The notes: generated by a model from the sequence alone, not told the origin. Positions 23,931 to 51,206 are shown, counted from the stretch's first letter. The stretch: DNA of 51,206 nucleotides from Psammoneis japonica (GCA_008632985.1 QPGO01000049.1:434001-485206), one strand, 5' to 3'. Made by a program: numbers and translations.

Positions 23931-24289
23931 TGCCGGCGCCGGCCCCAAGCCACAAGAGCCAAGCTGCCACTAGTCACGAGTCTGCTGGTTCACGGATGGC
24001 GATGGACTCGTTGCGTCATCGACATGTTGTCACGACAGATCTGCTTCAGCAAAAAAACGTCCGTCGAGTCTTGCGGCAACAGCACAGTGGTCGGAGTGAC
24101 GTTGGCGACCGTTGGTCGAAATTGTCACTCTTGCACAAGTGAGAGAGCATCTCACAATTTGCATTTTTAGCATGTCTCATTGTCCCCTGCTGCGATTGTC
24201 ACCCTCTGCACTGCATTGCACAACCTCGAGAGAGGCACCCCCCTCCTTTTGTGTCATCTGTGCAAATGGTTGCATCCCCAGCACCAAGC

Positions 24290-25210
24290 TGACACCAAGG
24301 ACAAAGTCTGTGTGGAGCTTTCCAAGGGTTCTCAGCCAAGAAGATCCGTTGCCGATTTGGCACTGAAACTGTTGAAAGGCCTGTGTGGCCTTCATGATCA
24401 GCCTCCCAAGTGTTTCTGTGGAAAGCTGCGTGACGGATCACTCAAAAGAGATTGGGTCCAGTCCGCTGTTGACCCTTGTCTTCATTTCAAAAGAAGGGTG
24501 TGCCATGTGTGGCGCACGTTGATGATGCCGTGTTTGCTGGTGCACCCACTCAAGAACTTGAAGCAAACAGAGACACATTGCCAAATTGGGCATCTCTGAT
24601 GGCGGGCAATGCCATGTCTTTGACCTGTGTGGTGAAGGCACAAAGTTGGTGACTTTTTGGGCGTCAAGATCCAGAAGCTCAAGAGCAGCTGGCTCTTCCT
24701 TCTTGACCTGGCCTGGCCCAACTGAGAAAGTGCTGCGTGCCACCAAGATGTGGAAAACTGCAATGGAGCTCCTGCTCCTGCACTTCCCACACCTGTTGGC
24801 GGCAACTTTGCTGAAGGCCTGCCATTGGATGAACCCTGCAACTGTTGCCCCGTGGTCGGCACGCTGATGCACCCAGCATCTGACAGCCACCCAAATGCTG
24901 CCCATCCACTGTCCATCAAATTGTGCAGTTCTCCTGTGCTCCCAAAGCCTCGCACACTGTTGCCATCAAACACACTCTTTGTCGCTTGAAGGGTGCCACC
25001 AACAAGGGGCTCATCCTTGCACCCACCACTGACCGTCATCTGGACAGCTGCATTGGCGCTGATTCTGTGGGACTCTTCTGTGCTGAAGACAGGCAGGACC
25101 CAATGTCCATCAAGCCATGCATCGGACATGTCATTTGTCATGTCAGATGTCCCGTCATCTGGGTGTCCAAGAAGCTGCAGAACCTGGCAGCTCTTTCTGA
25201 CTCTCACCCA
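24290..25210 (+). mobile_element. Degenerate Ty1/Copia RT-RNase H remnant
   Basis: VCVELSKG, LKLLKGLCGL (cf. LKL.KSLYGL), WVQSAVDPCLHFK, LKGATNKGLILAPT, SCIGADSVGL..EDRQDP.SIKP.IGHVI..RCPVIWVSK (cf. YVDADFAGL...ED..DP.SVKSRTGYVI...CPVIWVSK). Expected Tyr appear as Cys/His. Confidence 0.85.
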
Positions 25211-28200: not shown

Positions 28201-28574
28201 CGCACAGTCATGCTTGAGCAGTCGTGTGCAGTGCTTGGTTGTTGCGGTGCCACGTGAAGGAGGCTCAGCCACTGGAACAATCACAGGCTGGCCACAAACA
28301 ACACCAGGCAAGATTTGAGCATGAGCGCCACCTTGCCACTGACCGCATTGCAGCCGTTGTGATGACTGTGTGTTGTTGTTGCCTTTCGCTCACTGGGGAA
28401 AGCAACGACATGGCAGCAGGCATCGCATTGGCATCATCAAGCACACCAGCACTCCCCTTGCAGTTCATTAGAAAATCAGCATGCAAGGGAAAGGAGGCAG
28501 CACTGCTTGGCGGCATCCACTGGCAAACTCAAGAAATCCAATGAAACTGTCGAGGGTGCTGTTGCCGGGCTGGT

Positions 28575-29130
28575 GAAATGTCAGGATGCCATTGCCAAGC
28601 TGGCAAACCACATTCGAACTCTCAAGAACACCATGGTGGAATGTCAGGGTGCCATTGCCAAGCTGGTGGAATGTCAGGATGCCATTGCTGAGCCAGCAAA
28701 CTGCTTTCAGACTCTCAAGAACACCATGGCAGAACATCAGGATGCCATTGCTGAGCTGGTGGAATGTCAAAATGCCATTGCCAAGCTGGCAGACCACACT
28801 CAGACTCTCAAGAACACCATGGCAGAATGTCAGGATGCCATTGCCGAGCTGGTGGAACATCAGGATGCCGTTGCTGAGCTGGCACACCACTTTCAGACTC
28901 TTGAGAACACCGTGTCGGATTGTCAGGGTGCCATTGCCGAGCTGGCAGACCAAGTTTGGACTCTCAAGAACACCATGTTGGGTCATCAGGATGCCATTGC
29001 CAAGCTGGCAGAATGTCAGGATGCCATTGCCGAACTGGCAGACCATGTTCGGACTCTCGAGAACACCATGTCGGATTGCCAGATGCCTTTGCCGAGCTGG
29101 CAGAATGTCAGGATGCCATTGCCAAGCTGG
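28575..29130 (+). repeat. Tandem coding-like repeat (27- and 60-bp modules) reading as a coiled coil, E(C/H)QDAIA(K/E)L..TLKNTM
   Basis: About 12 copies of (tgt/cat)caggatgccattgcc(a/g)agctgg, interleaved with actctcaagaacaccatg; open frame 28507-29154. Confidence 0.85.
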
Positions 29131-29369
29131 GGCAGTGCGTGCAAGGGTCTCTGAAGCCAGCGAGGTCAAAGATTTGGCACAAGGTGACGCCGCGTGTGAG
29201 AGATCCACCCAGACAAGAAAGAGCTGAGAGACAAAAAAGGCGCAGCTTGAGACAGGCTTTGGGCTGGGTGCGCCAAGACATGTCGTTCTTTCTGGCAATT
29301 GGCTCACACAGGTTTGCACATGAGGAAAAAAGAGCACACATGCAGAGGTCAGCAATGTTGAATGACACC

Positions 29370-29560
29370 TTGGAAGTTTGCGCGAACGTGCAGACATGCC
29401 CTCAATGCCAAATCCCATTGACAAACCACGACTTGCAACAAAACCCATGGAAAAATTTTGCTCAACTTGGGACATTTGGCATTTGAAGCAAAAAAAAAAT
29501 TTGGGGTCCTTGCTTGGACAGTTCATTGACTTTTCTCACATCGTTGGAGACAGCTCATCG
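29370..29560 (+). repeat. Dispersed ~110-190 bp repeat, copy 1
   Basis: tgcagacatgccctcaatgccaaatcccattgacaaaccacgactt...aaaattttgctcaact...ggacagttcattgacttttctcacatc recurs at 31075-31365. Confidence 0.8.
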
Positions 29561-31074
29561 ACTTTTCTTGCATGGGTCATTGGGTCAGGGTCAGAGGGTT
29601 GGGGCCAGCTGTGTTGAACATCAGGCAAGATTTGAGCAGCTTGTGAGCAGAAATTCTTGATTTGCGGTCACCGTCAACACAGATGACACACGACTGCTGT
29701 CAGCTGACCCTGCCAAAACACCCGGCGAATTTGCTCATGTGGCCTCGTGTGCCCTGCTGGTGGCATGAGCTCAGCTGGCAGGCAGCTCTGGTGTGCCTTG
29801 CATCACCACCGCCACCTGCACAGACACTCGCTTGCACCTGGTGTTTTCCATTTGTCAAGTGGCTGCTCGCAACAGTGTGCTGTTCCAACTCCAGTGGGGC
29901 CAGCATCATCTGGCACACACCTGCAAATTGCCGCCTTTGCCGCGACGCTCCAAACACTTGCGCAGCTGCAAAAATTGAAAACTGCCCTTCTGCTGTGGGG
30001 CGAATGTTCTCATCTCCACACTCGATCACCAACGCTCTTCTGTTTGGCAGTGTGTCAGCAGCACTCATCGACAATGTGTCACAGAGTCTGTGCAAGTGCC
30101 AAAAAACAAAGCTTGTGCATCAAGCGCGCAGCAGCAGCGCATCAACAGTGCCTTGCGAACCCCAGCCCTGGCCCAGGCAAGGGGCTCCAACTCGGGATGC
30201 AAAACATCTGAAAGTGCTCCAAATCAAACCCAAGAATCTCTTTGTTGGGTGACCCTCAGCCCCTGCGCAAATGCCCGACAGTTGTTGCGCTGCTCCGTCA
30301 TTGTTGCCTTCTTGGCTTGTTCAGGGGGAAGTGCCGACATGAAAGAAAAAAACAGGAACCAGGAAGGGCCGCCCCAAAAGCCCGGAGACGAGCACACACA
30401 TGCAGCGCCACTTCTTTGAGGCCACTGCTTTTGTGCCGCGGCAGCGTGTTGTTTGTGAGCTTGGTCTGCAAAAGTGTGTGCTTGCAGCTCCTGCAGATTG
30501 GAGCTTGGCGGCGATTGTGGGGGCACCTGGCAACCGTGTTGTTGTTGCAATGAAACCTGTGGAGGAACTTTCTTTCATTAACGCCGCCGTGTCTGTCGCT
30601 CAACTTGCAAATGTGCCTGCTTGACATGAGCAGCTGCGATGGACTGACTTCGATGCGCACATGCCGAGTGAGCTCCTCTTCCATTGTGGGCCACCCTCAC
30701 ATCATTGATTTCCCTGAGGGCAAGCTTCGCATCTGTCTGGGGTGCAAGCAAGGGTGGGGGGGTGATGGAGGCGGGCATCCGAGATGATGAGGTGGTCCGA
30801 CAGCAGGGCTCAACTTTTTGCACCCCATGTCTCTGGCTCTTTTCCACACAGCCTTTTCATCTTTCTTTTGGCCTTGCGCCGCAGGTGGCAACGGCGGTGG
30901 ACAGGGCACTGCTTTCATTTGAGAGCTTGGGTGCAGCACTCTTGGCCCACAAGTTGTTTTTTTCTCAGAGGCCAATGTGGCATGATCGCTCGGGTGGTGG
31001 GGATCTGGTGGTTGATCTCTTGACAGCCGAGGTGTCATCATTGGACTTGGAACTTGACTGGGGGGTTTCTTCAA

Positions 31075-31365
31075 CTTGCAAATTTGCGTGAACTGGGCAC
31101 ATGCAGACATGCCCTCGATGCCAACTCCCATTGACAAATCACGACTTCCAAAAAAAACATGAAAAATTTTTTGCTCAACTCAGGACATTCAGCGACTTCA
31201 ACTTGGAAATTTGCATGAACTGGGCACACCCTGATGTGCCCTCGATGCCAACTCCCATTGACAGATCATGACTTAAAAAAAAAAAAACATGAAAAAATTT
31301 TTGCTCAACTCAGGGCATTTAGGAATCGTTGCGTGGACAGTTCATCGACTTTTCTCACATCATTG
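31075..31365 (+). repeat. Same dispersed repeat, two tandem copies
   Basis: Copies at ~31075-31190 and ~31201-31365 share aaatttgc.tgaactgggcaca...tgccctcgatgccaactcccattgaca...gctcaactcagg.catt. Confidence 0.8.
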
Positions 31366-35128: not shown

Positions 35129-35328
35129 CGCCAAGTATACGGTAGTAGCCACTCTCGCCGAGTCATTGAGAACAAGAGAAAGTCAGCCTTGGCTCTTCGT
35201 TTCAAATTTTGAAATGATGTGTTGGCTTGTGAAAGCATGTCAAACGATGAAACGTTGCCAAAGAGAACTCTCTGCTCGCTAATGCTTTTATGTCTCTGGA
35301 ACTCCTCTAATGGCATACTATATGTTAA

Positions 35329-35861
35329 CACGGGATCCGCGGATGCACCAGGGGAATCTGCGAAATGCGGGATGAAAGGGGAAAGGGGCAAATGTGAATG
35401 GTGGAAAAGTGACATGCTATTATTTTACCTTGAGGGACCCTTTAGTCAGCCAAACACGCTTATTGCTGATTTGACCCTCGTAGGTCCGTCCTTTCGGGGG
35501 TCGTTAAATTGTGGAGCAGACGCGGTCTCGAGAAATAATTTTATATATTATATATATGACCATTAATATTATATAAATCTGAAAACGACACACATAAAAA
35601 ACGCGCACGTACGTTTTTCAACTTTATATAACCTTCATAGCCAAATATATTATATAACGATTAATCCTCAAGACGCGTCCCGTCACAACATTTTGACACC
35701 CCCCATAAGACGGACCTATGATGGTCAGATGACAAATGTGCGTGTTCGGCTCACTAAAGGGACCCTTAAGGCACAACAATGGCCCCTTACTTTCCCAACA
35801 TTCCCATTTGCCCCTTTCCCCTTTCATCCCGCAATTCCCGGGTGCACCCGTGGATCCCGTG
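35329..35861. mobile_element. piggyBac-like non-autonomous foldback element/MITE, 533 bp, TTAA TSD
   Basis: TTAA|CACGGGATCC ... GGATCCCGTG|TTAA, with TTAA at 35325-35328 and 35862-35865. Imperfect inverted arms extend ~200 bp or more on each side. Confidence 0.8.
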
Positions 35862-35978
35862 TTAATTTCAATTCCTGCTTTTGTAGCATGGCTCTCCCCT
35901 TTCAACCCAGTCGTAAATGTCTTGCTTATTCTGAATAGCCTCCGTGTCGTTTGAGATGCACCCTTCTAGAGCGACTGT

Positions 35979-36002
35979 CCTAACCCCAACCCTAACCCTA
36001 AA
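35979..36002. repeat. Short interstitial telomere-like (CCCTAA)n tract
   Basis: cctaaccccaaccctaaccctaaa, about 4 units with one imperfect. Confidence 0.5.
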
Positions 36003-36402
36003 GCCACTTCAATCCTCTGAGGTTGATCCTGAGGGTAAAATAGACAAGCTTGTTATCACAATACTTTCTAAGAGTTAAAAGAGATTAATGACTGCTTCAT
36101 CGGCAGTTTTCGTGGTTCACGTGGAACACAACATGAGCGCTGACGCATACGTTTTCTTCACGCTATTTCATTTCGGCATTTGTGCTTCAGATGCACACTT
36201 TCCAACATGCACACTCCTCCTGACCAAGGACAACATTGTTTGCATTTCAAAGTTTGCCCATCTTAGGCACTTGGATGTTCATGATAGTTTGACGATCTTC
36301 ATGATAGTTTGACGATCAACAATGAACTTCTTGCCCACCACAGGCTTGCCGGTCCCCAATCATCTTGTCTGTTGGGCAGAACTTAATCTCAAGTTCTCCA
36401 CG
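36003..36402 (-). mobile_element. Diverged Copia fragment (RNase H tail plus truncated 3' LTR) related to the element at 37356-44297
   Basis: Alignable to ~37855-38235 (e.g. ttgtctgttgggcagaac, gcacttggatgttcatgat, gacaagcttgtt.tcacaat). The LTR end is missing and abuts the CCCTAA tract. Confidence 0.85.
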
Positions 36403-37036
36403 CGTCACTTTGACCTTTCCAATTTCGTCTGCGTAAGTTTTGTCAAGCCAAGTCTAAACTCGTCCACATGCCACTTGTGTCCGACACGCTTCCCATCTCG
36501 CACACCCTCCGCCACTTGCAGTGGGTTGGACCACATGCGTCCCCACGCCACACGACACACTGTGCAGCCCAGGTGGCAAGCCCAGGTCACCGTCATTGGA
36601 GACCAGCACCAGGGTTGGGTGATTGGGAGGGTGCCAGCCATCCAATGGTGAAAAATGCAAGTCAAACGAGGAGAACAACTAACGCAAGTCTAACTTGCCA
36701 ATCAAATGAGGGGCTGACTGCCGACACAAGCCCAACGACATGCGTGTCACATGAGGAGAACGAAATTCTAGTTGCCTGCTGCCACAAGTCTAACATGGAT
36801 CGCGATCGATCTCCGCCAGAGTGGCACTTTCGCAAAAAACCTTGTGCTTGGAGCAAACGTTTTTGGGCTGCTCTGCAGGCTTTGCAACGACAACAAGGCA
36901 GCGAACCGGCATGGGTTGGAGATGGAAATGTTCGAAACCCAGCCACTGAACAAGATCGGCAGACAGCAATGAAAACAATTGCACCGGTTTGCCAGCACTG
37001 TGGTGGAGAATGATCTTTGCCAGCTGCGTTCTCCTC

Positions 37037-37355
37037 TCATGTCTGACATTGCGCAATGCCAACAGTGCCTCTCTTCTTTTCGATGTTTTCCAGTTCGTTG
37101 ATTTGGAGCTGCTCTGACGACATGGACCACAAGAATTTTCCTGTCACGAGGTTTCTCAGGATTCGCAGATGGCAACGGCGTCCAGGAATGAAGTGCTGGG
37201 TGCGGCCGATCTCAACAATCTTCTTGTCGGCAATTTGGAGGACAATGGCGCCATAAAAAGTTCCACGTTCTTTTCCACGTCCATGAATCACAAGCGGCAC
37301 GATGGCGAGTTTCAGCTTTTTCCAGTGCAAGAATGCTCGGTTGTCCCACTCAGCC
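37037..37355 (-). pseudogene. 3' part of the beta-propeller (Beta_propel/PF09826-like) gene, separated from its 5' part by the Copia insertion
   Basis: EWDNRAFLHW...LAIVP...FYGAIVL...EIGR..H...ILRNLV continues in frame from ...GSCSEA at 44298 once one CAGCC copy is removed. Confidence 0.85.
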
Positions 37356-37593
37356 TGTTGGAAATGGCGAATTAAAAGTTCAAACACCAAAATTAGATGG
37401 CGTGAAGAAGACGCATGCGCCAGCGCTCATGTGCTCCATGCGAAGCAACAAAACAGCCGATGGAAGCAGCCATTGTTCTCTTTTGACTCTTGGAAAGTGT
37501 TGCGACAACAAGCTTGTCTATTTTGGCCTCAGGATCAGACCTTGAAGGACTGAGGTGGCTCTGAAATAGTCACCAGAAGGACAAATTGCAACA
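37356..37593 (+). repeat. 5' LTR (238 bp)
   Basis: tgttggaaatgg...aaattgcaaca. Confidence 0.95.
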
Positions 37594-37821
37594 GCCAAAA
37601 GAGAATGATCCAGCTGAGAGCTGTGAAAAGAAAGCAAGAAAGAAAAGAGTCATTCTCACGGTGTGTGAGACATTTTGCTGCTTTGCCTTTTTGTCATGAG
37701 TGGAAGAGGCAGAGGTGGAACTGGCAACAGAAGCCAAGGAAGAGGACCCTCAGGAAGGGGAAACAAGAGTGGCAAGCAAAGCCACAAGGGCGCCAATGGT
37801 TGTGTCCACCATGTTGGAAGT

Positions 37822-38059
37822 TGTTGTAATTTGTCCTTCTGGCAACCATTCCAGAGCCACCTCAGTCCTCTGAGGTCTGATCCTGAGGCCAAAGTGGACA
37901 AGCTTGTTGTCACAATGCTTTCTGAGAGTTAAAAGAGAATGATGACTGCTTCCATCGGCTGTTTTGTTGCTTCACGTGGAGCACATGAGCGCTGGCGCAT
38001 GCGTCTTCTTCACGCTGTCTAATTTTGGTGTTTGAACTTTTGGCCCACCATTTCCAACA
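37822..38059 (-). repeat. Inverted internal 3'-type LTR (238 bp)
   Basis: Reverse complement of the other LTRs, preceded on the minus strand by the purine-rich gcaggagtg. Confidence 0.95.
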
Positions 38060-41000
38060 CACTCCTGCTGACCAATGACAAGATTCTTGCTGTTTCCAAA
38101 TTTGACCATCTTGGGCACTTGGATGTTCATGATGGCTTGACGATCAACAATGGACTTTTTACCAACCACTGGTTTGGTCATGCAATCTGCCATCATCTTG
38201 TCTGTTGGGCAGAACCCAGTCTCAAGTTCTCCTCGCTTGATGAGGTCAGTGATGCAAAAATGCTTGATGTTGAAATGTCTCGTGCGTTTGCCCAAGCTGG
38301 CCTTTCCATTTTGTTCTAGTTTCATGCAACTTTGGTTGTCTCGATGCATGATGTTGCGCTTGACTTCAAAACCTTGAGCTTCAGTGAAACGCTTGGTCCA
38401 AAGGACCTTTGCCAAAACATCGTCTCCTGTGACAATCTCTGCTTCTGTAGAACTCCTGGTGTTGATCTTCTGCTTTGTGCTGACTGATGTAATGACACCT
38501 TTTCCAAGGGTCATGGCAGAACCTGTGTGGCTTTTACAGTCCGGATGGACTGCGAATGCGGCATCCGTGTGCCACTCGACGACAACTTTGTCTCCAGTCG
38601 ACATGACTGCGACATCAAGCTGGGTTGTCTTGAGGAAATTCATGAGCCTCACCAGCTTTGGCCAACCCGATTCGTTCAGATCCTTGACCCTGGTGGAGAG
38701 AAAAGCAATGCCAGGCTGAATGTCCTGTCTGGCTCTCTTGCACACAAACATGCCCTTCATCACAAAAGTGCAAAATGCTCGAGCATGCTTGAGATCTAAT
38801 TTCTTGGCTGTCTCATCCACCTTGTTGAGCTTCTCGCTCCACGGGCAATCCACGTCACCCGACAATTCTTCTGGGAATTCCTTGAAGAACTCCTTGGCCA
38901 TTCCTTGCACACAAAGCACCATGTCAACTTGCAGTGCTCCTGGAATGGAGCAACCTAGAGTCATGGCCAGACAGTCGTGCCTCTTTCCACGCGTGACTTT
39001 GACCTTTCCGATCTCATCCGCGTGAGTTTTGTCCAACCAAATCTTGAATTCATCGTTGACCTTGCTGTCAACATGACCAGACTTTAAATCGTCCACATGC
39101 CATGTCACAGTGTGTTGTTTTCCATTCACGATGCGGTTGGCGACACATGGATCACAAGGATCAATCTCAAATCCGATTCCTTCGATGTCCCTGCTGAACT
39201 TCTTGTGACAAAGAATGGAGGACACCAGCATTCTGCAGAGCGCCTTCAACATTTCAACGTAGAGAACCTTGTGTTTGCCTTCGCACACGACGTGGTCCTG
39301 GCAAGTGTCTGGATCCAATTCCAGCAACATGTCCACCATCCTTCCACGGATCTTCATGATGATCTTTTCATCCTTGACCTCGATGTCCGTTTGCACAAAT
39401 GCGCTCGGGATGTCCGCTGTCATGACGTCTCTGCCTTGCTTGGCATCAATCACTCCTGCAATGAGAGTGGATTCTGTGGATGCTGTCGGACTGGCGGTTT
39501 CGTCTCGGTCCATGCACTCTCGTTGCGTGCTTCCGTTTGCACACAACCTTGACTTGATTCGTCCATCTCTCTTCTCTGTGAGAAACATGAGGCTCTCCAT
39601 GGCTCTCTTCCTCTCCAGAGGAGTCATGTCCTTCATGTGAATGGGTTTGAAAACCACTCTGTCATGGATTTGCTTCAGCTCTGACACTGCCGACTTGTGG
39701 CCTTCTTCTCCAAACTTCTGGAGTCCTCGTGCCAAGCTGTGAGTTTGAACAAATTGCTGTGCAACTTCATCAGTGGAAATCGAGCTAACCTTCTCATTCC
39801 ACTGACACATTGTCATGGCCATGATTCTGGCCGTTTCTAAGCTGCACTCTTCTTCTTGTGAATGAGCTTGAGTCTGTAGATGGCATTGGCAGTCTCCCAA
39901 TCTAACTGGAGGTTTCAGAGTCCTTCCTGCCCTGGATGTAGCAACAGGCTCTTCTTGGACACTTTCTTTGGTTTCACTCTGCTCCTCTCCAGATTCGTCC
40001 TCAGATTCCAGGTCTTTCATTTCGTCGATGATCTCTTGCACTTCTGGAGAGTGTTCCTTCTCTTGTTCCAGCCTCTGTTGTTCATCAATGTGGTCAATCA
40101 TGTCGTCAATTTCTTGTGAAATTCCGCTGCCGTCTGATGGTTGAGAACCAACTTCGTCATTGTCTCCAAGATGCTCATCATTGGAGGTTTCTTCTTGAGT
40201 CTCGTCTTGTTCTTCACTGATGCAGCTGGCTTCTTCATCCAATTCTTGTTCTCGAATTATGTCTTGCAGCTCTTCTTGACTAACTCTGTCGTAGTCTCCC
40301 CAGTCTGGCTCTTCTTCCTCGTCGTCTTCAGTTTCAATGTCTTCTTCTAGATCACAATCTTCGTCTTCAAATTGATCTTCATCATGATCCACTCCTGCAA
40401 GCCAAGCACTGTGGTGCAAAACAGTTCCAGTGCGGTTCTGAATCTTGAGACCGTTGGGCATCTTGTTCATTTCAGCCAAACGATGAACCTGCTTTGTGAT
40501 GGCGGGGGTGATGGGCACAGGTGTGACCTTGCGACGAGTGATCTTCTTGCCGGTTTGCAAGTGCAGCAACTCATGTCCAATCTGGTTGCTGTCGGTGGGG
40601 CGCAAATGAATGCAACCCAAGGTCCGTGACTCTTGGGTGTTCTTGGGGTCCGGGTCATTGTGAGCCTGCACACAAGTGCCGAACGTGATCTTGCAGCTCT
40701 TGTCACAGTCTAGATTCTTTTGATGGAGAATCATTCTCGGACTGTAATGTTTGGAAACGCCGTGCTTGGTTGGAAAATAATTGAGCTTCTTAGCAGCTTC
40801 GGTGACCATGACTTCGACCATGAGTTTTGGCAGATGCTTGAATGGCAGCTGATGATAGACTGCCCTGGCACGTTCTTGAATAACTCGGTTGTTTCTTTCG
40901 GCTTCTGGGACATGCTCTTGAGCATGTGCGCAGTTCATCTTGAGATCAAACTTGTCTTCTAGTGCATTCCCAATGGGCCTGAATTCGTTGTCACAACGAA

Positions 41001-41079
41001 TGCGTGTGACCTTCAAATCGGCCTTGTTGTAGACTTGCAGCACATCTTCCAGAGCTTCTTGATGAGCCAGTTGGGTCAA
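37972..41079 (-). pseudogene. pol: Copia pol (integrase-RT-RNase H), TA-mutated
   Basis: RIRCDNEF, EHVPEAERNNR (INT); KRDGRIKSRLCANGS, ADIPSAFVQT, DPCVANR, TWHVDDLK (RT); TDAAFAVH, NTRSSTEAE, RDNQS, ADCMTKP (RNase H). Tyr is nearly absent, replaced by Cys/His. Confidence 0.95.
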
Positions 41080-42930
41080 GTCCTTGAGCGGTTGTGCCGT
41101 GCGATAAAAAATGTTTCATGACACTGTGGTGAGGAATGGCAATCCATTCACCTTGAGACCGTCCAGGCAAAGAGTGACCTTGTGTTGTGCTGCAATGAGC
41201 TCCTTCAGGATCTCCACGCAGTCTTCTACAACTGGCTCCGGCTTCTGCCTTGTGACCTTGCCTTTTAGACTTCCAATGTCTGGTCCAAAAATCTTCTCGG
41301 CCAAATCTACATCCTCCGTTGTGATGGGATTGTTCTTGATGCTGTTCATGCAAATGATGGCCTTCAGATTGTTCACGGTTGGGTTTCCCAATGCGTGCAA
41401 CAATTCCCCAGCCCTCTTGGCTTTCTCGAACTGTCGTGGAGTGTAGAACTTCTTGTTCTCTTCCACACTCTGCACAAATTGGAGCTGAGTTCCAGTGTCG
41501 TTTGTCTTGGGCTTGTAAACGTGCAGCCCTTTTTCCGTCCTCCTCGAACCTGACCTTCTTGTTGGGGAGATGAACGGTGAATGCATTGTCTTGCTTAGAA
41601 TCACTTGTGATTCTGTGTTTCTTCTTCATGTCAGAGCAAGCAAAAATGTTGGTGATTGCATCTGGGTTGAACCAAGTCTCGCCAAACCCTGGCACCGTGG
41701 CCTTGTGTGTCGTGACTGGGACTCCGCCATTGGTGTGCAAATGCATGGCTTCATCCAACGGACTGATGTCTGCAACGAGCTTCTCATTGCAGAAGATTGT
41801 GGTTGTGGACTGGTTGTCCAATAAAATCCAGTCTCTCATGCTGCCAGATTGATCCTGGTGGAGAGATGCATCGATGTGCATGCCAGCCCATCCTGAAACA
41901 GCAGATTTTGTTCCAGTGGATTCTTTGGCAGAAGAGTTGGCTGCACTGGCATCGTCACTTGCCTGAGCGTTGCTTGCTTCTTGCTTGGCTTTGGCCTTGT
42001 TGATGGCCCATTCTGCTTGAGGTTTTCCTTGCCTTTCCCAGCACTTGTTGGAATTGTGTCTGGCCTTGCCACAGCAGCAACACTTGCCTTCTAACTGAGT
42101 GAAGGACAGCGTGATTTCTTGGTTTTCTTCTTGTTTCTTGGAGTCAGAGTTGTTGTTTTGATTGTTCCTGTTACGGCAGTTGTCAGGCTGACCAACACAG
42201 TCAAAAGTGTGGTTGCTCAACACCGTGTTGGCTTCCACAATGGACTTGGGACATTGGTTGTTCTTGAGGGACTGCTGAGTGTTCAATCCTGTTAGAATTG
42301 ATCCACACTTGCGCTGGTCTGCATTCTCCAAGTGCATGTAACCCATCAATTGGCTGAACGACTTTTCTTGACACTTCTTGACAGAATCCGCATTGTGCTC
42401 GTCAAATTCTGACATGCCTTGCACTGCCTTGGTGAGGACAATTGGTCCTCCAATGTGAGACTTCATGATGTCCCTTGCAACCCTGAATCTCTTGGTGCAA
42501 TCTTGGAGACTCTCCTTCTCCTTCTGCTTGGTTTCCAGCACCGCTCTCATTGAATCTGAGATGACAGCCATGTCACACCTGTGCTCTTGGCAGTTCAATG
42601 CATGCTCCTTAATGGCCTTGAGCAATTCGACAGGATCGTTTTTAATTTTGGTTTGGAACTGTGTTCTTGCTTGAATCTTGTTCTTCATGGCCTTGGAGCA
42701 TCTCTCCCAGAGCAAAGCACAAGCCTTGACAAGGTTGTTCTCACAAGTTTGGGTCCTCTTAATGTGAGCATCAAATTCTGTCTTGAACTCAATTTCATGC
42801 TGTTTGTTCAATGGCATGTCCACCTTGTCATCTCCAGTCAAGCTGACCTGCAAAGTTGGCTTCTTAGAACTCATGTCACATGGAGTGTAAGTGTTGAGTG
42901 CAGTTGCAATGTCATTTCCAAACTCATGAG
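41080..42930 (-). pseudogene. gag: Copia gag-protease region, 5'-truncated and frameshifted
   Basis: EFGNDIATAL; zinc knuckle KCCCCGKARHNSNKC (cf. CYCCG..GH....C); protease WILLDNQST; FYTPRQFEKAKRA, NNPITTEDV.LAEKIFGPDIGSLKGK. Frameshifts near 41535 and 41100. Confidence 0.9.
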
Positions 42931-44058
42931 TCGAAGGAATCGGATTTGAGATTGATCCTTGTGATCCATGTGTCGCCAACCGCATCGTGAATGGAAAACA
43001 ACACACTGTGACATGGCATGTGGACGATTTAAAGTCTGGTCATGTTGACAGCAAGGTCAACGATGAATTCAAGATTTGGTTGGACAAAACTCACGCGGAT
43101 GAGATCGGAAAGGTCAAAGTCATGCGTGGAAAGAGGCACGACCATCTAGCCATGACTCTAGATTGCTCCATTCCAGGAGCACTGCAAGTTGACATGGTGC
43201 TTTATGTGCAAGGAATGGCCAAGGAGTTCTTCAAGGAATTCCCAGAAGAATTGTCGGGTGACGTGGATTGCCCGTGGAGCGAGAAGCTCAACAAGGTGGA
43301 TGAGACAGCCAAGAAATTAGATCTCAATCGTGCTCGAGCATTTTGCACTTTTGTGATGAAAGGGCATGTTTGTGTGCAAGAGAGCCAGACAGGACATTCA
43401 GCCTGGCATTGCTTTTCTCTCCACCAGGGTCAAGGATCCGAATGAATTGGATTGGCCAAAGCTGGTGAGGCTCATGAATTTCCTCAAGACAACCCAGCTT
43501 GATGTCGCAGTCATGTCGGCTGGAGACAAAGTCATCATCGAGTGGCACACGGGTGCCACATTCACAGTCCATCTGGACTGTAAAAGTCACACAGGTTCTG
43601 CCATGACCCTTGGAAAAGGCATCATTGCATCAGTCAGCATGAAGCAGAAGATCAACACCAGGAGTTCTGCAGAAGCAGAGATCATCGCAGGAGACGATGT
43701 TTTGGCAAAGGTCCTTTGGACCAAGCGTTTTGTTGAAGCTCAAGGTTTTGAAGTCGAGCGCAACATCATGCATCGAGACAATCAAAGTTGCATGAAACTG
43801 GAACAAAATGGAAAGGCCAGCTTGGGCAAATGCACAAGACATTTCAACATCAAGTGCTTTTACATCACTGACCTCATCAAGCGAGGAGAACTTGAGATTA
43901 AGTTCTGCCCAACAGACAAGATGATGGCAGATTACATGACCAAACCAGTGGTTGGTAAAAAAGTTCATTGTTGATCGTCAAGCCATCATGAACATCCAAG
44001 TGCCCAAGATGGTCAAATTTGGAAATGGCAAGAATCTTGTCATTGGTCAGCAGGAGTG
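42931..44058 (+). pseudogene. pol: Second copy of Copia RT (3' half)-RNase H, inverted duplicate of 38060-39185
   Basis: Near-identical to the minus-strand copy (EGIGFEIDPCDPCVANR...ADYMTKP), with small indels near 43360 and 43960. Confidence 0.95.
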
Positions 44059-44297
44059 TGTTGGAAATGGTGAGTTAAAAGTTCAAACACCAAAATTAGA
44101 TGGCGTGAAGAAGATGCATGCGCCAGCGCTCATGTGCTCCACATGAAGCAACAAAACAGCCGATGGGAAGCAGTCATTGTTCTCTCCCAACTCTCAGAAA
44201 GTATTGTGACAACAAGCTTGTCCATTTTGGCCTCAGGATCAGACCTTGGAGGACTGAGGTGGCTCTGAAACAGTCACCAGAAGGATGAATTACAACA
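44059..44297 (+). repeat. 3' LTR (239 bp)
   Basis: gcaggagtg|tgttggaaatgg...gaattacaaca|cagcc. Confidence 0.95.
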
Positions 44298-46063
44298 CAG
44301 CCTCGGAGCAGCTTCCTCGGAGTGTCCACACTGTCAGTTCCTTTGGGTTTGTTTCGTCGCTCATGTTGAATGGCGACACCTTGGTTCCCAATGTCCTTCC
44401 ATTTGCAACGTCCTTTCCAACACCGAGGACTCTCCCATCCTCCACTCTGTGAAGATGCGTGCTGAAGCCAGGGATCTTGAGCTCTCCCTTGACTTCAAGC
44501 TTCTTTGGATTTGCCAAGTCGATGATGTGGAGCGGATCCGTTTCCCCAAATGTCACAACGCATGCAATGTCCTTGTGATGTCGCACCGCAAAGATGCGCT
44601 CGCCAACGCCTGGGTCTTCAACAAGGCCCACAGGCTTCAGCAAGCCCTTGTCATCGTCGATCTTGAATGAAGTGACCCTGCTCTTGCTGAGCGACCGCCC
44701 TGTCCACCAAGAGGCCCCGACGGTCGACGCAATGAAGAAGTGGCCGTCGTTCTCGTGCACAGAGAATCGGTTGAGGATGCCACCCTGTGAGCAGCAAACA
44801 AAGACAAGACTTGAGCAAAGCCATGCATTGAAATCCACTCGGGCAGTGAAGCACGCTTGCTTGCGGTGATTTGACCAGATGCTCTGTGTGTCGCCCCCGT
44901 TTTGCTCAGGCTAAATCGGTGGATGCGTGTCTGGCAGTTCGGACCCCAACGGTTGGCGCTGTTGGGCACATTGCCAAATTGGAACTCATTGGTCGTCACG
45001 TGCATCAACTGCTTGGTCACGTGCAAAGCCTCGGCGTTGGAGACAATTGAGTTTGATGACGTTGGAGTCATGAGTTTGTTGAGCGGCAGCGTCACTGCTG
45101 AGAGCATCAAAAAGGCCGAGAACACATCTGGCAAATGGCACAGGTCACTGCATGACCCGCACACGCCAACCTGTGTTTGCTTTCCCTTTTGAAGCTTGTG
45201 GGTTGGCAGCCAATTCCCAGCCCTTGAGCATTCGATGATCTCCTGGTTCCACTTGAGTGTCTGATCTGACTTGTGTGTGCGGTTGGGCCTGTGCAGCCAG
45301 ATGGACTGCAAAGGTTGAATTTGATCACGATTCGTGCAACGCCATCTGTTTCACGCACCTTGACGTATGATCCTTCAAGATGAAGCATTGAAATCAGCTT
45401 CGGCTTGCAGTTCTTGATGCGGATTTGGTGCAAAACAGTCAAGTCCTCACCACGTGACGGATGGCGTCTGTGCTGTTGTTGGACCTTGCGTTTGTAGTTA
45501 CGGTCGCGACCAATGACGATGACAAAGTTCTTTTCGAGCAGCATGTCGTCCGGGCGGGCAGGCAGTTGGATTGTTCCAGCAACTCTTCCGCCCCCACCCT
45601 CGTTGAGGACCTTGATGACGGCCAACTTTGAGCCCGAGATCGCGCACACCATCTCACCATCAGTCTTGACAATGTCGGCCTCGTCGATGCCCTTTACCTG
45701 GACATTGGCACCCGAGAAGTCCTTGCCCTCCTCCTTGCCTTCTTTGTCATCTTCATCGTCGATGAAAGAATTGCCTTTGGTGATGTTTCCCTTTTCAATG
45801 ACTTTGGGGTCTTCGAAAGGCTTGTAGAGCTTTGGCCCAGCAGGCCCGCCCGGACAGCCTGGCTTGCCGGCAAACTCTGGATTTCGGGTCGGTGTGCAGG
45901 CGTTGCGGGAGTTGAGGCCGCATGGACCGATGAGCGGCAGCACCTTGTTGATGTGGCAGTTGTTCATCGCGGTGCAGCTGTCGAAGCTGCTGATGAGCTC
46001 TGGCTGCGAGGTGCAGGGCGACAGAACCAGGGACAAGGCGAGGATGAACGGTGACAACATCAT
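44298..46063 (-). pseudogene. 5' part of a secreted beta-propeller domain gene (Beta_propel/PF09826-like), TA-mutated, with decayed intron 44785-44864
   Basis: Signal peptide MMLSPFILALSLVLS; family motifs FSGANVQVKGIDEADIVKTDG, GGILNRFSVHE.DG, GERIFAVR, VVTFGETDPLHIIDL, GELKIPGFSTHLH; frameshift near 45312. Confidence 0.88.
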
Positions 46064-46399
46064 CGGGGCTGGAAAGAGCAGTGGTTGTTGACAGTTGGTA
46101 ACTTCTTAGGATTGATTGTTTGTGGGAGTGTTGGCGAGAGCAGTCGTTCGAAATCGGGTGATGGGTGATGCGAAGCCGAATTGCTGTGTTCTTCCAACTT
46201 CTCCTCCAGCATGTCAATCAATCGTCAAACACTGAGTTAAGTCATTTCACAAATGCCACACTGCAAACAGTGATTTGAGAATTAAATGATGGGCAAGAAA
46301 GGACTTGAGCTCAGACGTTGTCAATCGATCCGTGACCTCGAACCCACAATCACATGACATGACATTGCTTGGGGCCCTCTGCTGGCAGGAGCACGCAAA

Positions 46400-47170
46400 C
46401 ATTTGTGTGGTGAAAGGGCAATGATGGTCGATTTGAACAATGATCCTCTGTCAAATGTTTCTTTCAAAATGTCCGACCGATGCTGGATTCTCGTTTCTGA
46501 CTGGGGCGGTGTCAGGGAGCAGACATTGCAATGATCATTGACAGTCATTTGCCCAACCTTTTTCCGATGGAGTGCAACAAAGATTTGTTGTGCCATGTGC
46601 CAAAAGACCCATGTGTGTAGACACCCCCCTGCTGTTTTCTTGCATTCTGATTGGATCTGCTGCGTCACAATTTCAAGCGCAGATGGATGATGATGGCTTG
46701 AGGATGATCCCGAGTTGCCCGAATTCCCCCCGCACTGTAGACCCATTCCAGCTGCCATCCTTCATCGACGCGGCATCCACCACTGGACATGCCCATGCCC
46801 TTGCTGGTGCCACCATCGACCACCGCTGTGCCATCCAAACCCTCACAGCCACCAGCTCCACCGAGGCCGAATTCATTGCTTGTGTCACCGCGGCCAAACA
46901 AACCTTGTGCCTCTGTTCAGTGTTGGTGTTGGGCTTTCCTCAAAAGGGACCTGCACCCCTGCACACTGACAACTCATCGGCTGTCAAGAGATGGTCAATC
47001 ACCAAATCCCCACCGAGTGATCACGGCACATTGACACCTGACATTTCGCAATCTAAGACTGGCAGGAGGCCAACAAGATTGTCGCCAGACATGTTCCAGG
47101 TGTCATTGACCCTGCCAATGTGCTTGTCAAGGTTGTGGGATGGATCCTGCATGCCTGCCATGCTCACCGA
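46400..47170 (+). mobile_element. Degenerate Copia RNase H fragment from a different family
   Basis: FIDAA-STTGHAHALAGATIDHR..IQTLTATSSTEAEFIACVTAAKQ...LGFPQKGP..LHTDNSSA. Left boundary approximate. Confidence 0.85.
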
Positions 47171-47949
47171 TTGATGGAACACTGCCATTGAACAGATCAG
47201 TGCTTGTGCCCCTGGACCATTGCAGGGCGATTGGCGATTGTCTGTTGCACATTTCCCATCTGTCACACTGTTCTCTCTTCTCTTCATGCATCTTTGATGC
47301 TGTTTTTTTTCTCTTGATTGGCATCTGCTGATTGCTCATCAGGGGAGGGTGACAGAGCTGACCGAGTCATGAGTCGTGCGTGCCTGTGAGGTGGCTCACA
47401 GTCACACACCCAGTGGACAGACATTGTCACAAGCAGCGGATGTGCTTCCTCACTTGTGTCAACTCTCCTTGGGGAGAAGTTGCAAAACTGCTGTGGAGGC
47501 AGGAATTCTGGCACAACCTCTTTCTCCAACAGATGCTGTGGCTCCTGCAAAACCAAGCTGATGGCTCGCACACGTGTGCCACCAGCTCCCATGGCTTCAC
47601 TGCTTTTGAACACACTGATTTCCACTCTGAGTGGTTGTGAGCCCAAGCTTGCATGTGTGCCCACTCACACACATGCAAAACTTTTGAGCCACACTTGCCC
47701 ATGGTGGTCAGCAACAATGTCATGATTTGGGCATCACAGCTTGCAGCTTGCACAGGCGTGACACACTCAAATGTCAGTGCAAATTTTTTCAAACCCTTTG
47801 CTGATGCTGTTCATGCTGTGTGGACCTCATGTGCCCCTGATTTAACAGGCACCAAGCAAACAATTAGGTTCAAAAAGGAAGAGTGAGTTAGAGGCAAGTC
47901 AAGGATGACAGTGAAAGAGGAACATGGAACTTTGTGTGGAGGAAAACAG

Positions 47950-49500
47950 TGCTCTGCTCTGTTGTTCTGGCATGAGAGCAGCTGACAAAGAAAGTCTGGC
48001 TCCATTGCTTCCTCCATTGGATGACACTCTCCAGGATGGCACAATGGAGTTGCAACATTTCTTTGAAAGCCAGGATGATGTTGACTGTTGCATGCTGGCC
48101 AGTGGTGAAAACACCAGCCGGGCTCCCAACCGACAGTGAAACCTTTGATTTCAGCCAGCTTTGCTTGTTAATTGAGCACAAGTGGATGGAGACAGATGAG
48201 TCAAAGACTTGGAGCAGTTGTGCTCCAACATTCTAGAACAGCATCAACAAGAGCAAGATTCCTTCAAGCTTCACTCTTGCAACAATCTTTTCATCAGTTC
48301 TGCCTGGACTGTTGGCAGTGAGAAGCAATTGTTCCACATGTTGCCCCACGTTGTGAGGGTGGATGCAACTTCTCACTCCAACAATGAGAAGAGGATGCTC
48401 CTCACATTTTCAGCCAGGTCACCGGATTGATCACACTTTGTTTTTTGCATGTGCACTTGCCAGACCAGACTCAACCCACATCTCGCTGGATGTTCAAAGA
48501 TGTGTTTCCAACACTTTTGGACAAGCGGTCCCTCCAACACATCCACATGATGTTTGCCGACAGTGATTCCCCCAAGTCATTGAAGAGCTCCGTGATGCCA
48601 TCCACAGCCATGTGCCTTCAACCTGCCAAGCAAGATGTGGATGGCACATTGTTGAAAAAGGTTGGATGACTCACTGCCCCAGAGAAAAAAGCATCTCTGC
48701 GGGCCAAACTTGTGAGTGATTCAAGCTGTCAGTTGCCACAACAAAGGCACAGTTGTGCTCAAGCACTGTGAAAAAGCCAACAACTCAAGTCATGAAGGAA
48801 CCAATTTAGGCAGCACCCCAGTCCTGAATTTGCAAAACCTGGCAACAACTGCAACTTTTCTGGCAATGCAGTCAGATGCAAAGGTTGCAGAAATGCTGTG
48901 TGAATTAAGTGGGATGGTGCACACATGGTGTCTTTGGTTGAAACTTCCAACCGTCAATCATGTGCTGACCAGGTGCAAGGGCATGCTCTCCAGATGTTGG
49001 AAAGCTGTCCATTGTCATGAGGTCAGGTGCAAGCTGAATGGTCAAAGCAATGACCCCAACTGCGCAGCATGGGAAGCAGCTTGCAAAGTTACAAATGACA
49101 AAGAAAGCAACACACAAGGAAACCCCAAAGACCAAGAATGCCAAGAACAAGAAAACAATTCTGAGGAAAGCAACCCATGCTTCAAGCACATCCCAAAGCA
49201 CCAGCGGGTGCTTGTTGTCTGCATGGATGGATCATGAGTTCTTCATTGTGCCTGTGCTGAGTTCCAACGCACAGGCATGGGATGCATTCATCAGTTGTCC
49301 ATGATGAAGTTTGAGTTGGGCCAGCAATTTAAAGGATTCTCTCATCTCATGACGTGTCCATTGCATGGTGGCAAAAGCATTCCCACCATGCTTTCAGTGG
49401 GAACAAGCAAGTGGATGGCCTGGATGACATTTTCAAAGCTTTGTTGGAAAATGATGCAAAGGGGCCATGGATGCCAGATCACTTTGATCCAACAGTTGTG
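47950..49500 (+). mobile_element. Degenerate Mutator-like (MULE) transposase with SWIM zinc finger
   Basis: LFHMLPHVVRVDATSHSNNEKRMLLTFS (first catalytic Asp region), RWMFKDVFPTLL...MFADSD, RCGWHIV (CxxH, ~48634-48654) and LHCACAEFQRTGMGCIH (SWIM, ~49241-49291) in the expected order. Boundaries approximate; lies in a depleted block running to ~51100. Confidence 0.75.
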
Positions 49501-51206
49501 CCCAAGCCAACCACCATGACAGAGTCTGTTTTTGACATGCCCTGCAATGTCATGTCATCTTTGACCAACTGCTCTGAGGAACAAGCAAAGCAAGCAGTCA
49601 AATCCACCATGCCATTGTTCAACACACAGCCACTGCTGAATTTTCACAGATGCCCAATGTCAACATGCAGGATGAGGGTGATGGAGACCAAGACCTGGTG
49701 CTCAGTTTCCTGGATGATGCTCGCCAATCCGGTTGTGAAGTGTGGTCCCAAAATGACACTGAACAACAAGTCATGCATTGCAACCAAAGTGCTTGCAACA
49801 TTTTGGTGCCAAGGACAAACACTCTTTGTGGTCTGTTTGTGTCTCAAGATGTGTCCTGTGTGGACATGCCAGACATCAAACCCTTGGCAACAGCAACAGA
49901 CGAGGCAATTGCAGAGATGTGAGGCAAGCTGCACTCTCTCCATGTGTCTTTGTCAGACTGCCAAGACAACTCTGCACCACAATGGATGTTGAATTGTGGC
50001 AAGCAAGACACAAAGCACTGATGCACCCACACACGAAAATGGTCTTGCTTGAATGGTGGCACATGCAGTGGTGCACCTGAATCATTGGGGGGTGTTGCAC
50101 ACACTGAAAGAAAAAGCTCAACTGCAACCCACTTTCAATGCCTGACACGGTGATCAAGTCACAGACCAATGGCATCTCAAAGAACTTTGCTTGACAAATC
50201 AACACCATCACCATGACCAAGTGGTTCCAACAGACTCACTGGGTGATCTGCAGCAAGCCATTGCTTGGGAGTTGTGAGTTCTCTTGGGAACTTGAATGAC
50301 TTCAAAGTCTCCACACTGGGCAAGGAGCTTGCACTCATGTCAACCTTCATGTTCACATGGTGAGCTGTCTCATCTTTTTCTGGCAATTCACCACCACAAG
50401 GGAATCTGTCAATGACATGCTCACACATTCCTGTGTTGTCTTGTCCAGGCAAATGAACAGCAAGAGCCTTCATGCCGATGCACTCAAACATGGGAGTGTG
50501 CTCTTAAACAAGGCATTGCAAAACTCTTTGCTCTTCATGGTTGTCTTGTTTCTTCTCCTTGCAAAGGCATGGCTTGAGCCACCTCTCTCTGCAGTGCTCT
50601 GCCAAGCCAGCACGTTCTCTCCCAAGATGATGTTGCAGTGTCTTCCCAAAGGCACAAATCCTGGGTTCACTTTTCAACCGTGCTTCACAGGAAGCTCACA
50701 ATTGATGGCTCCTGTGACTGCATTGGCTGGTTTGACAACAGCCTGTGTGGCCATCTAGGAAGGCAGGGTGCCTGTCTTTCCCTTCTGGCCAACATCATGA
50801 GTGCCGGTCAAATTGCCGCATTGTTTGACAAGCCTTGTTGATTTGGTCCAGCTGAGGAGGAACCACTCAAACAGAAATCTCTTTCCATGGTGCAGGCATG
50901 CTGCAGCCCTTCCAGTCATCTTTGGGCATGACATCTGCATCAGGCTTGAGTGCATTGCTGAAATGATGGAAGTCCTCTTGTCCTCCATGTTCCTCCTTGC
51001 TTTGCCCGGCACATTCTGCAAATGTCAAAGAATGCACCCAGCCCACTTTCATTCTCACAAATGTTGAAAATGGAAAGCCTTTGGCTTTGCAAAACAGGGA
51101 GCTGGAACAATTTCGTAGAGGATCACATGCAGACATGTGCACGCGAAACGTGGCGCGATCCAAAAATCTGTTGATGTCACAGTTCAGCAGTGCAAGGTCC
51201 CACCTG

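Follow-up and report, generated by a model that had tools for sequence, protein, structure and literature searches.

The diatom Psammoneis japonica carries, in a 51,206-nt stretch of genomic DNA (GCA_008632985.1, QPGO01000049.1:434001-485206; hereafter the window, with positions counted from its first nucleotide), a nest of two Ty1/Copia-type (diatom CoDi-like) long terminal repeat (LTR) retrotransposons within a broken host gene. A post-integration, two-strand, and domain-wide process that converted A:T to G:C with a preference for TpA dinucleotides has acted on this DNA, with CpG decaying in parallel. The reading favored here, to which a probability of roughly 0.72 is assigned, is that a silenced domain comprising the elements, the broken host gene, and the flank underwent chromosomal A:T to G:C hypermutation on both strands, mainly at TpA. 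The two elements lie in inverted orientation, with the inner element on the minus strand and the remains of the outer element on the plus strand, and sequence coding for the C-terminus of reverse transcriptase (RT) and for RNase H is present in both.

Tyrosine loss and the direction of change

As the two copies alone cannot tell a TA from a CG origin of a TG/CA difference, outgroups were used. Conserved columns of the whole polyprotein were compared with 43 full-length diatom homologues (35 Tyr columns and 547 columns of other residues), and four of the 35 Tyr were kept, with the others replaced by Cys (19), His (nine), Phe (two), and Leu (one), compared to 488 of 547 for the other residues (Fisher p = 1.6e-23). 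Alignment to diatom Copia homologues had been proposed as a check in the initial annotation of this DNA, and its outcome agreed with the Tyr loss claimed there. Tyr was lost by TAY to TGY or CAY, i.e., by TpA to TpG or CpA, and Cys and His replacements both occurred, as expected for action on both strands. The additional suggestion that Ile, Val, and Leu were hit was not borne out, since they were kept in 21/26, 22/22, and 44/50 conserved columns, respectively, compared to 89% for non-Tyr residues overall. Within RT-RNase H, Tyr occupied 12 columns in 80% or more of 120 homologues; the minus copy kept one of them (eight Cys, two His, and one Phe), and Lys (25/25), Arg (17/17), and Val (14/14) were kept throughout. 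In any one of the 120 homologues, Cys or His occupied at most two of 22 Tyr columns. The polyprotein contained Tyr at 11 of 1678 residues (0.66%) against 3.41-4.89% in the 43 homologues and Cys at 3.28% against at most 1.65%, and the RT-RNase H part of its long open frame (residues 471-1047) held one Tyr in 577 residues (0.17%).

Single-base changes inferred at conserved codons comprised 31 A>G, of which 24 followed a T, and 11 T>C, of which 10 preceded an A, together with eight G>A and four C>T, besides 13 transversions, 15 codons with at least two changes, and eight ambiguous cases. A:T>G:C transitions outnumbered G:C>A:T transitions by 42 to 12, with the latter being mostly CpG decay, and TpA was the predominant although not exclusive target of the former (34/42).

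The composition of the nest was compared with a family baseline consisting of the best 80 of 440 metagenomic matches, obtained with two peptide patterns. These loci had an observed/expected ratio (O/E) for TpA of 0.51-0.83 (median 0.67), and none fell below 0.5, which does not in itself show that hypermutated relatives are absent elsewhere. The nest had 7.6 TAA and 5.9 TAG per kb, compared to 28.1 and 19.5 as the medians of the 80 loci, confirming that these stops had been erased as the initial annotation stated, while TGA stood at 52 per kb against 45. Open reading frames (ORFs) of at least 100 amino acids in six frames numbered 2.16 per kb compared to 1.25 in the relatives. By the genetic code, a change of TpA to TpG or CpA cannot make a stop from a sense codon; loss of TpA removes both Tyr codons and stops, so that the copies were killed by missense change while their long frames stayed open. 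Damage by missense instead of new stops had likewise been predicted, and the sole in-frame stop, a TGA, stems from CpG decay.

The RT-RNase H copies (inner 37822-39185 and outer 44297-42931, inverted) were 94.5% identical over 1367 nt, differing by 72 substitutions (71 transitions and one transversion) and three one-base indels, and 14 differences were adjacent flips of TG in one copy versus CA in the other. In both copies TpA O/E was 0.12-0.15, CpG O/E approximately 0.5, and TG/CA 1.5-1.7. The four motif pairs quoted in the initial annotation were all present as written, with RHDCLAM, MVLCVQG, NIKHFCITD, and MADCMTKP in the minus ORF and RHDHLAM, MVLYVQG, NIKCFYITD, and MADYMTKP in the plus ORFs (42930-43445 and 43360-43974), and the homologue consensus (HDYLAM, xYV, IKYFYITD, and ADYMTKP) matched the Copia-like Tyr motifs reconstructed from them. 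The corresponding codons in the minus and plus copies were TGT and CAT at Y715 (Tyr in 120/120 homologues), TGT and TAT at Y735, CAT and TGC at Y952, TGC and TAC at Y954, and TGC and TAC at Y978, all five having a TA ancestor. The description of the loss as complementary was thus partly right: the plus copy alone kept Tyr at three sites and the copies had different losses at two, but the same loss was found at three more (C/C at 654, H/H at 698, and C/C at the LDYS position, now LGCS and LDCS). Other copy differences derived from CpG (R777, P813, A853, A855, and R944, with a flip at T880). Since sites of CpG ancestry stand beside sites of TA ancestry, two processes are mixed in the copies, TpA to TpG/CpA and CpG to TpG/CpA.

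Survival of TpA in the nest relative to the family baseline of 80 loci depended strongly on the flanking bases:

ATAT: 0
GTAC: 0
ATAC: 0.02
ATAG: 0.07
ATAA: 0.09
CTAC: 0.22
GTAA: 0.29
TTAA: 0.34
CTAA: 0.48
CTAG: 0.57

In total, 10 TpA were left against approximately 223 expected in ATAT, GTAC, ATAC, ATAG, and ATAA, compared to 31 against approximately 70 in CTAG, CTAA, and TTAA, and the ranking was unchanged when host regions of the window served as the reference. The best target was therefore TA within ATA/TAT or GTAC, and the Tyr codons TAT and TAC are themselves good targets. A uniform rate per site was considered and rejected: arithmetic from the retained TA and CG counts predicted approximately three TG/CA flips between the copies compared to the 14 observed, implying strong rate differences among sites, in line with the flank preference.

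Nested elements, the host gene, and the depleted domain

The features of the region were as follows:

36002-36455, minus strand: fragment of a 76%-related Copia subfamily (LTR and 3' end of pol), used as outgroup
36101-51206, no strand: continuous TpA-depleted domain up to the end of the window, holding both elements and both Beta_propel parts
37046-37366, minus strand: continuation of the host Beta_propel gene beyond the insertion (residues 557-660 of homologue P0121)
37351-37355, plus strand: left target-site duplication (TSD) CAGCC of the outer element (left end ...CACTCAGCC and then TGTTGG; repeated directly after the 3' LTR)
37356-37593, plus strand: 5' LTR of the outer element, TGTTG...CAACA (90.8% identity to 44059-44297; TG..CA ends; TSD matched at the far end)
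37594-37821, plus strand: 228-nt remnant, presumably the leader of the outer element from its position between the outer 5' LTR and the end of the inner element
37822-42930, minus strand: inner Ty1/Copia-type element, nearly full-length
37822-38059, minus strand: 3' LTR of the inner element
37972-41115, minus strand: 1047-codon open frame for integrase, RT, and RNase H, extending into the LTR (colinear with residues 538-1619 of a 1621-residue homologue)
41116-41118, minus strand: in-frame TGA stop (other copies in DNA run X1 have G at 41118 on the plus strand, i.e., CGA)
41530-41543, minus strand: frameshift between the gag-protease and pol frames by a one-base insertion (tblastn alignments change frame at 41543/41544)
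41543-42930, minus strand: gag-protease part of the inner element (homologue residues 46-537)
42931-44058, plus strand: outer element fragment, C-terminus of RT and RNase H (one-base insertions at 43359 and 43957)
44059-44297, plus strand: 3' LTR of the outer element (relative to its own 5' LTR, 21 transitions, no other substitutions, and one indel)
44298-44302, plus strand: right TSD CAGCC
44299-46063, minus strand: N-terminal two thirds of the host Beta_propel (PF09826) gene (three frames; homologue residues 1-561; TpA-depleted)

Both elements of the nest are retrotransposons of the Ty1/Copia type. The polyprotein order gag, protease, integrase, RT, and RNase H was colinear by tblastn with homologues of 1568-1641 amino acids (residues approximately 46-1619), and a protein search with the element gave 1403 matches, the best at 63-65% identity and the named ones being diatom "reverse transcriptase" proteins of Nitzschia inconspicua, Fragilaria crotonensis, and Epithemia. 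The Pfam RVT_2 score of 27.6 bits was below the cut-off of 31.6 bits, compared to 34.3-44.6 bits for intact homologues, a shortfall that fits mutational damage, and the family assignment accordingly rests on the homologues. The long pol frame reported in the initial annotation stays open, although it measures 1047 codons from stop to stop rather than 1035, and the TGA that ends it at the N-terminal side represents CpG decay of CGA because the other X1 copies read G at 41118. Erasure of a natural pol stop, also considered, proved unprovable, as the C-termini of homologues are variable and in several of them the frame likewise continues past ...QQECVG into the LTR. The base at 41530 was absent from five X1 contigs (depth 688/932). 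At its 5' end the inner element lacked the first approximately 45-57 amino acids and the 5' LTR, such that only the 3' LTR remained. The prediction that annotation pipelines would call such dead elements intact was overstated: the inner copy would deceive only a criterion of ORF length, as the frameshift, the TGA, the missing 5' LTR, and the low RVT_2 score mark it as damaged.

The plus-strand fragment and an apparent "solo" LTR at 37356-37593 belong to one element because the TSD CAGCC is common to both, and the outer LTRs (238/239 nt, TGTTG...CAACA, with CAGCC on each side) represent direct LTRs with a 5-bp TSD. The copies are consequently nested insertions and not the duplication that the initial annotation had assumed. 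The outer plus-strand element inserted into the host Beta_propel gene, the inner minus-strand element landed inside it afterwards, and a subsequent deletion took away the 5' end of the inner element together with most of the interior of the outer one. The presumed outer leader lies in particularly depleted sequence (TpA O/E 0.05 within 37601-37900).

The two outer LTRs differed by 8.8%, i.e., by 21 transitions, no transversions, and one indel, and the substitutions were polarized with two other LTRs. Eight were TpA>TpG/CpA at six TA sites, two of which had been mutated in both LTRs in opposite ways, and three were CpG decay. Another seven A:T>G:C changes consisted of three GTG>GCG, one GTC>GCC, one TT>CC pair beside a mutated TA, and one AAT>AGT, with one G>A and one ambiguous CA/TG pair (two substitutions) completing the set. 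A:T>G:C changes therefore numbered 15 compared to four G:C>A:T, with TpA accounting for 8/15. Because the LTRs were identical at insertion and have since diverged mostly at TpA, the TpA process acts on integrated DNA.

The signature extended to the host gene, which was split exactly at the TSD, with P0121 residues 399-561 ending at 44299 and residues 557-660 resuming at 37366, and was broken into four fragments in different frames. TpA O/E in the Beta_propel region was 0-0.21 with CpG O/E of 0.41-1.01. In the seven columns where 70% or more of 62 homologues have Tyr, no Tyr was kept (five His, one Cys, and one Phe), compared to 125/177 for other conserved residues (p = 2.7e-4). In the X1 data, summed word depth over the Beta_propel pseudogene region 44675-46075 was approximately 134-157 against approximately 50-70 in unique flanks, and a second version of the gene, 9% different, was found as a 262-nt contig with 24 differences, such that the gene or pseudogene is present either in multiple copies or as divergent alleles.

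The TpA-poor domain ran continuously from approximately 36100 to the end of the window (at least 15 kb). Blocks at 1-1000, 5001-8000, 12001-13000, 24001-31300, and 47001-51206 had TpA O/E of 0.00-0.07, CpG O/E of 0.10-0.56, and TG/CA of 1.5-2.1, and sharply adjoined host genes with TpA O/E of 0.3-1.0. Over all depleted blocks, TpA O/E was 0.00-0.17 with TG/CA of 1.4-2.1, and both strands were affected since TG and CA were about equally enriched. Parallel CpG decay, nested insertion, and the extension of the signature across the flanking host gene and a domain spanning 15 kb or more go beyond the initial annotation. Pfam searches on ORFs of the blocks at 1-1000, 5-8 kb, 12-13 kb, and 47-51 kb returned no family and on the 24-31 kb block yielded nothing beyond matches of coiled-coil or low-complexity type and a single marginal zinc-ribbon match; no terminal repeats were found around 24-31 kb. 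These blocks are presumably older repeats mutated beyond recognition. The pattern appeared to be graded with age, from a young unmutated miniature inverted-repeat transposable element (MITE) through the intermediate transposon nest to the saturated blocks.

Several further observations concern the same DNA. Most ORFs inspected in the TpA-poor blocks were without Tyr and two had a single Tyr. A tandem array of 93-nt units at 28553-29080, in a TpA-free block, translated into a coiled-coil-like sequence (QDAIAELAEC...). The MITE-like insert at 35322-35860 had approximately 60-nt terminal inverted repeats and TTAA flanks (a piggyBac-type target), with an X1 word depth of approximately 2277 and an alternative allele without the insert (joint 35322>35860). 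The 76%-related Copia fragment sits within a 534-nt insert (35942-36475), in which telomere-like CCCTAA repeats (approximately 35975-36000) are joined to the truncated LTR and pol 3' end; an alternative allele lacks it (joint 35941>36476), and it may represent filler DNA from break repair. Other host genes in the window, which are in keeping with a diatom origin, coded for an acetyl-CoA synthetase (70-78% identity to diatom proteins) and a DUF6824 protein.

Explanations of the TpA signature

Under the favored reading, A:T would be turned into G:C on both strands, almost only from TpA to TpG or CpA and best at ATA/TAT or GTAC, such that the Tyr codons TAT and TAC would become TGT/TGC (Cys) or CAT/CAC (His) and the stops TAA and TAG would be removed with no new stops arising. 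Methylated CpG would decay in parallel to TpG/CpA at a lower rate per site. The agent would be a deaminase directed to silenced or foreign chromatin, converting adenine in the DNA to hypoxanthine, a base read as G. TadA/ADAT2-family tRNA adenosine deaminases act on the A following U33.

A number of findings weigh against this reading. Some TG/CA flips between the copies are of CpG ancestry, e.g., T880 (ACA/ATG from ACG). GAT>GGT was found at three invariant Asp, D721 and D817 in the minus copy (38026-39678) and D851 in the plus copy (43537 region). GTG>GCG occurred three times in one LTR, and a TTT>CCC run was also present. Not every change fits TpA, and either the specificity is looser than that reported for the chlorarachniophyte Bigelowiella natans or a second process contributes. 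Inference from conserved codons detects only non-synonymous changes, and Tyr codons dominate it by construction. The sequence was found in X1 only, which may be the assembly's own data and whose platform and library type are unrecorded. Finally, the high-copy MITE was unmutated (TpA O/E approximately 1.1) though 300 nt from the edge of the TpA-poor domain, which would fit a time-dependent process. The Asp changes are A>G after G instead of T and hint at a secondary context or a second process.

Repair-coupled mutagenesis is an unlikely alternative, in which T:G mismatches from 5-methylcytosine deamination would engage non-canonical mismatch repair with an error-prone Pol eta-type polymerase acting at WA motifs. 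TpA loss and CpG decay do share the same domains, some A>G changes fall outside TpA, and A>G at TA is included in the WA signature of Pol eta. However, AA>AG was rare (Asn>Ser and Lys>Arg in 3/71 conserved columns compared to Tyr>Cys in 19/35), TpA loss was near-saturating (O/E 0.00-0.07 over whole kilobases), and the Beta_propel flank combined strong TpA loss with near-normal CpG. Relatives with CpG decay but no TpA loss were also identified (L070, CpG O/E 0.14 and TpA O/E 0.56; L059, 0.32 and 0.56).

RNA-level A-to-I editing by an ADAR- or ADAT-like enzyme, acting on transcripts or an RNA:cDNA hybrid before integration with the changes inherited by the copies, is very improbable given that 21 transitions, most of them at TpA, have accumulated since insertion between the LTRs of a single element and that the flanking host gene is without any of its seven conserved Tyr. 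A>G with a 5' U/T is well established as the classic neighbor preference of RNA adenosine deaminases (also stated in passages of 10.64898/2026.01.13.699255). Pairing between the inverted copies might give a long RNA hairpin, and Tyr>Cys (A>G on the sense strand) exceeded Tyr>His by 19 to 9, but this skew was not significant (p = 0.087) and sense-strand T>C was common (nine His). Furthermore, ADAR prefers a 3' G, opposite to the nest, where TpA before G survives best.

A sequencing or base-calling artefact, by which modified bases in silenced DNA would be misread as transitions in a genome that really carries TA and CG, would account for the confinement of the signature to probably methylated repeat domains and for both palindromic steps, CG and TA, being affected with a random outcome of TG or CA, like strand-discordant miscalls. 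Logan contigs (k-mer assembly) of X1 were compared with the window, and half of the sampled words were present, compared to next to none in DNA runs X2 and X3. Of the X1 pieces, 409/1514 were at least 99% alike to the window, including pieces in the TpA-depleted flank of 326 nt with no differences and 352 nt with one (word depth 26-48). The contigs reached 315 kb with a word depth of approximately 50 in unique flanks and reproduced the TpA-poor sequence, and depths of approximately 26-50 with contigs of this length indicate accurate reads. Summed X1 depth across the element was 1000-2000, suggesting some 20-40 copies within 10% divergence, and these copies differed from the window and from one another with transitions predominating (at 321 places, against 35 for transversions). 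Other copies had CGA in place of the in-frame TGA, were without the extra bases at 41530 and 43957, and had T at 38954 such that Tyr735 is intact. In addition, the mutation level appears to be graded with age from the MITE to the saturated blocks, and in the Beta_propel flank the depletion of CpG does not go along with that of TpA. X1 excludes consensus or polishing error and makes a modification-dependent miscall unlikely without amounting to independent proof, and an artefact as a whole is about as improbable as RNA editing.

The least credible alternative is the absence of any hypermutation, with low TpA inherited or selected (UpA avoidance) or produced by gene conversion with a GC bias between repeat copies: many eukaryotic transcripts are poor in UpA (passages of PMC3829696) and host regions of the window are also low (TpA O/E 0.3-0.8), but invariant catalytic-domain Tyr were replaced, 80/80 related loci had TpA O/E of at least 0.51, 0/120 homologues passed two of 22 Tyr columns as Cys/His, the flanking host pseudogene bears the same signature, and gene conversion would favor W>S transversions too and in all contexts, compared to 71 transitions and one transversion between the copies.

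Related systems and significance

The closest counterpart of the favored TpA-directed hypermutation was described in B. natans, where integrated giant-virus and virophage DNA was hypermutated in mutation-accumulation lines and where, of the mutations newly arisen in two viral regions of the chromosomes, 230/231 were A>G/T>C, all of these at TpA (Mettrop et al., bioRxiv 10.64898/2026.01.13.699255). The same passages report TpA-poor, CpA/TpG-rich clusters enriched in transposon domains as well as an excess of reverse transcriptase and DDE domains among TpA-poor coding sequences, and propose an ADAT2-like protein as the agent (10.64898/2026.01.13.699255). The present case is similar in the changes being almost exclusively A>G/T>C and predominantly at TpA, giving TpG or CpA on either strand, in its limitation to particular chromosomal regions of foreign origin, and in the long-term footprint of depleted TpA and enriched CpA and TpG. 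It differs in lineage, being in a diatom (stramenopile) compared to a chlorarachniophyte (rhizarian), and in its targets, which are LTR retrotransposons and the host gene broken by them in place of integrated viruses. Depletion is deeper here (O/E 0.00-0.15 against a rho of 0.45 reported for the B. natans nucleocytoplasmic large DNA virus region), CpG has in addition decayed strongly, roughly one fifth of the A:T>G:C changes are outside TpA, and a flank preference (ATA/TAT and GTAC) is visible. De novo mutations were observed in B. natans, while the present case is known from its footprint alone.

Fungal repeat-induced point mutation (RIP) is comparable as a transition-only chromosomal hypermutation of repeated or foreign DNA with a dinucleotide preference, leakage into the flank, and inactivation of transposons. 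Its direction is opposite, as the initial annotation had recognized: RIP in ascomycetes is C:G>T:A, mainly CpA>TpA, raising TpA, lowering GC, and making stops, whereas here TpA was destroyed, GC went up, and no stops could be made. Editing footprints of ADAR and APOBEC in animal retroelements are reportedly clustered transitions in copies, attributed to a host deaminase. Such editing is strand-specific and acts on RNA or pre-integration cDNA, in contrast to the change of integrated DNA on both strands seen in the LTR pair and the host flank. Methyl-CpG decay accounts for CpG>TpG/CpA in the same domains (CpG O/E 0.1-0.6; e.g., R777, P813, and R944) and for the CpG part only, as it is unable to eliminate TpA and is also found in related elements elsewhere that have retained their TpA. 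Passages of PMC9998398 describe CG methylation of diatom transposons by DNMT5 and a RID-related DNMT4 of unknown function in many diatoms. CoDi elements as described in the sections consulted of Maumus et al. (2009; PMC2806351) share with the nest a protease-integrase-RT-RNase H order in one long frame, short TG..CA LTRs, and a 5-bp TSD, and the best protein matches are diatom elements; the present copies differ in being dead and hypermutated. A text search of the CoDi paper (PMC2806351) found nothing relevant on transition bias, and no report of a TpA process in diatoms was found in the literature searched, including passages of PMC9998398 and PMC2806351.

By analogy with the proposal for B. 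natans, the agent in P. japonica may be a DNA adenine deaminase and the process would serve as genome defense. No dedicated eukaryotic genome-defense enzyme that converts adenine in DNA is known to have been characterized, and the finding points to a possible natural activity of this kind that is of interest to base-editing work. The consequences for annotation are practical. Dating by LTR divergence is inflated in such domains, the present pair being 8.8% apart mostly at hypermutable sites, and open-frame criteria overestimate intactness as TAA and TAG vanish and six-frame ORFs lengthen. Tyr-poor and Cys/His-rich "proteins" provide a simple marker of dead genes.

Hypermutation from A:T to G:C at TpA has a single precedent, in the 2026 preprint on an unrelated alga (a chlorarachniophyte). 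The footprint in a second lineage suggests that such mutation is more widespread in marine protists and targets retrotransposons in addition to viruses. It is tentatively proposed that diatoms have a chromatin- or repeat-directed enzyme deaminating adenine of chromosomal DNA at TpA, best at ATA/TAT, as a natural A-to-G DNA editor for defense and that, together with Bigelowiella, this might reflect an ancient mutator of the stramenopile-alveolate-rhizarian (SAR) lineages, opposite in direction to RIP and APOBEC, that acts against mobile elements.

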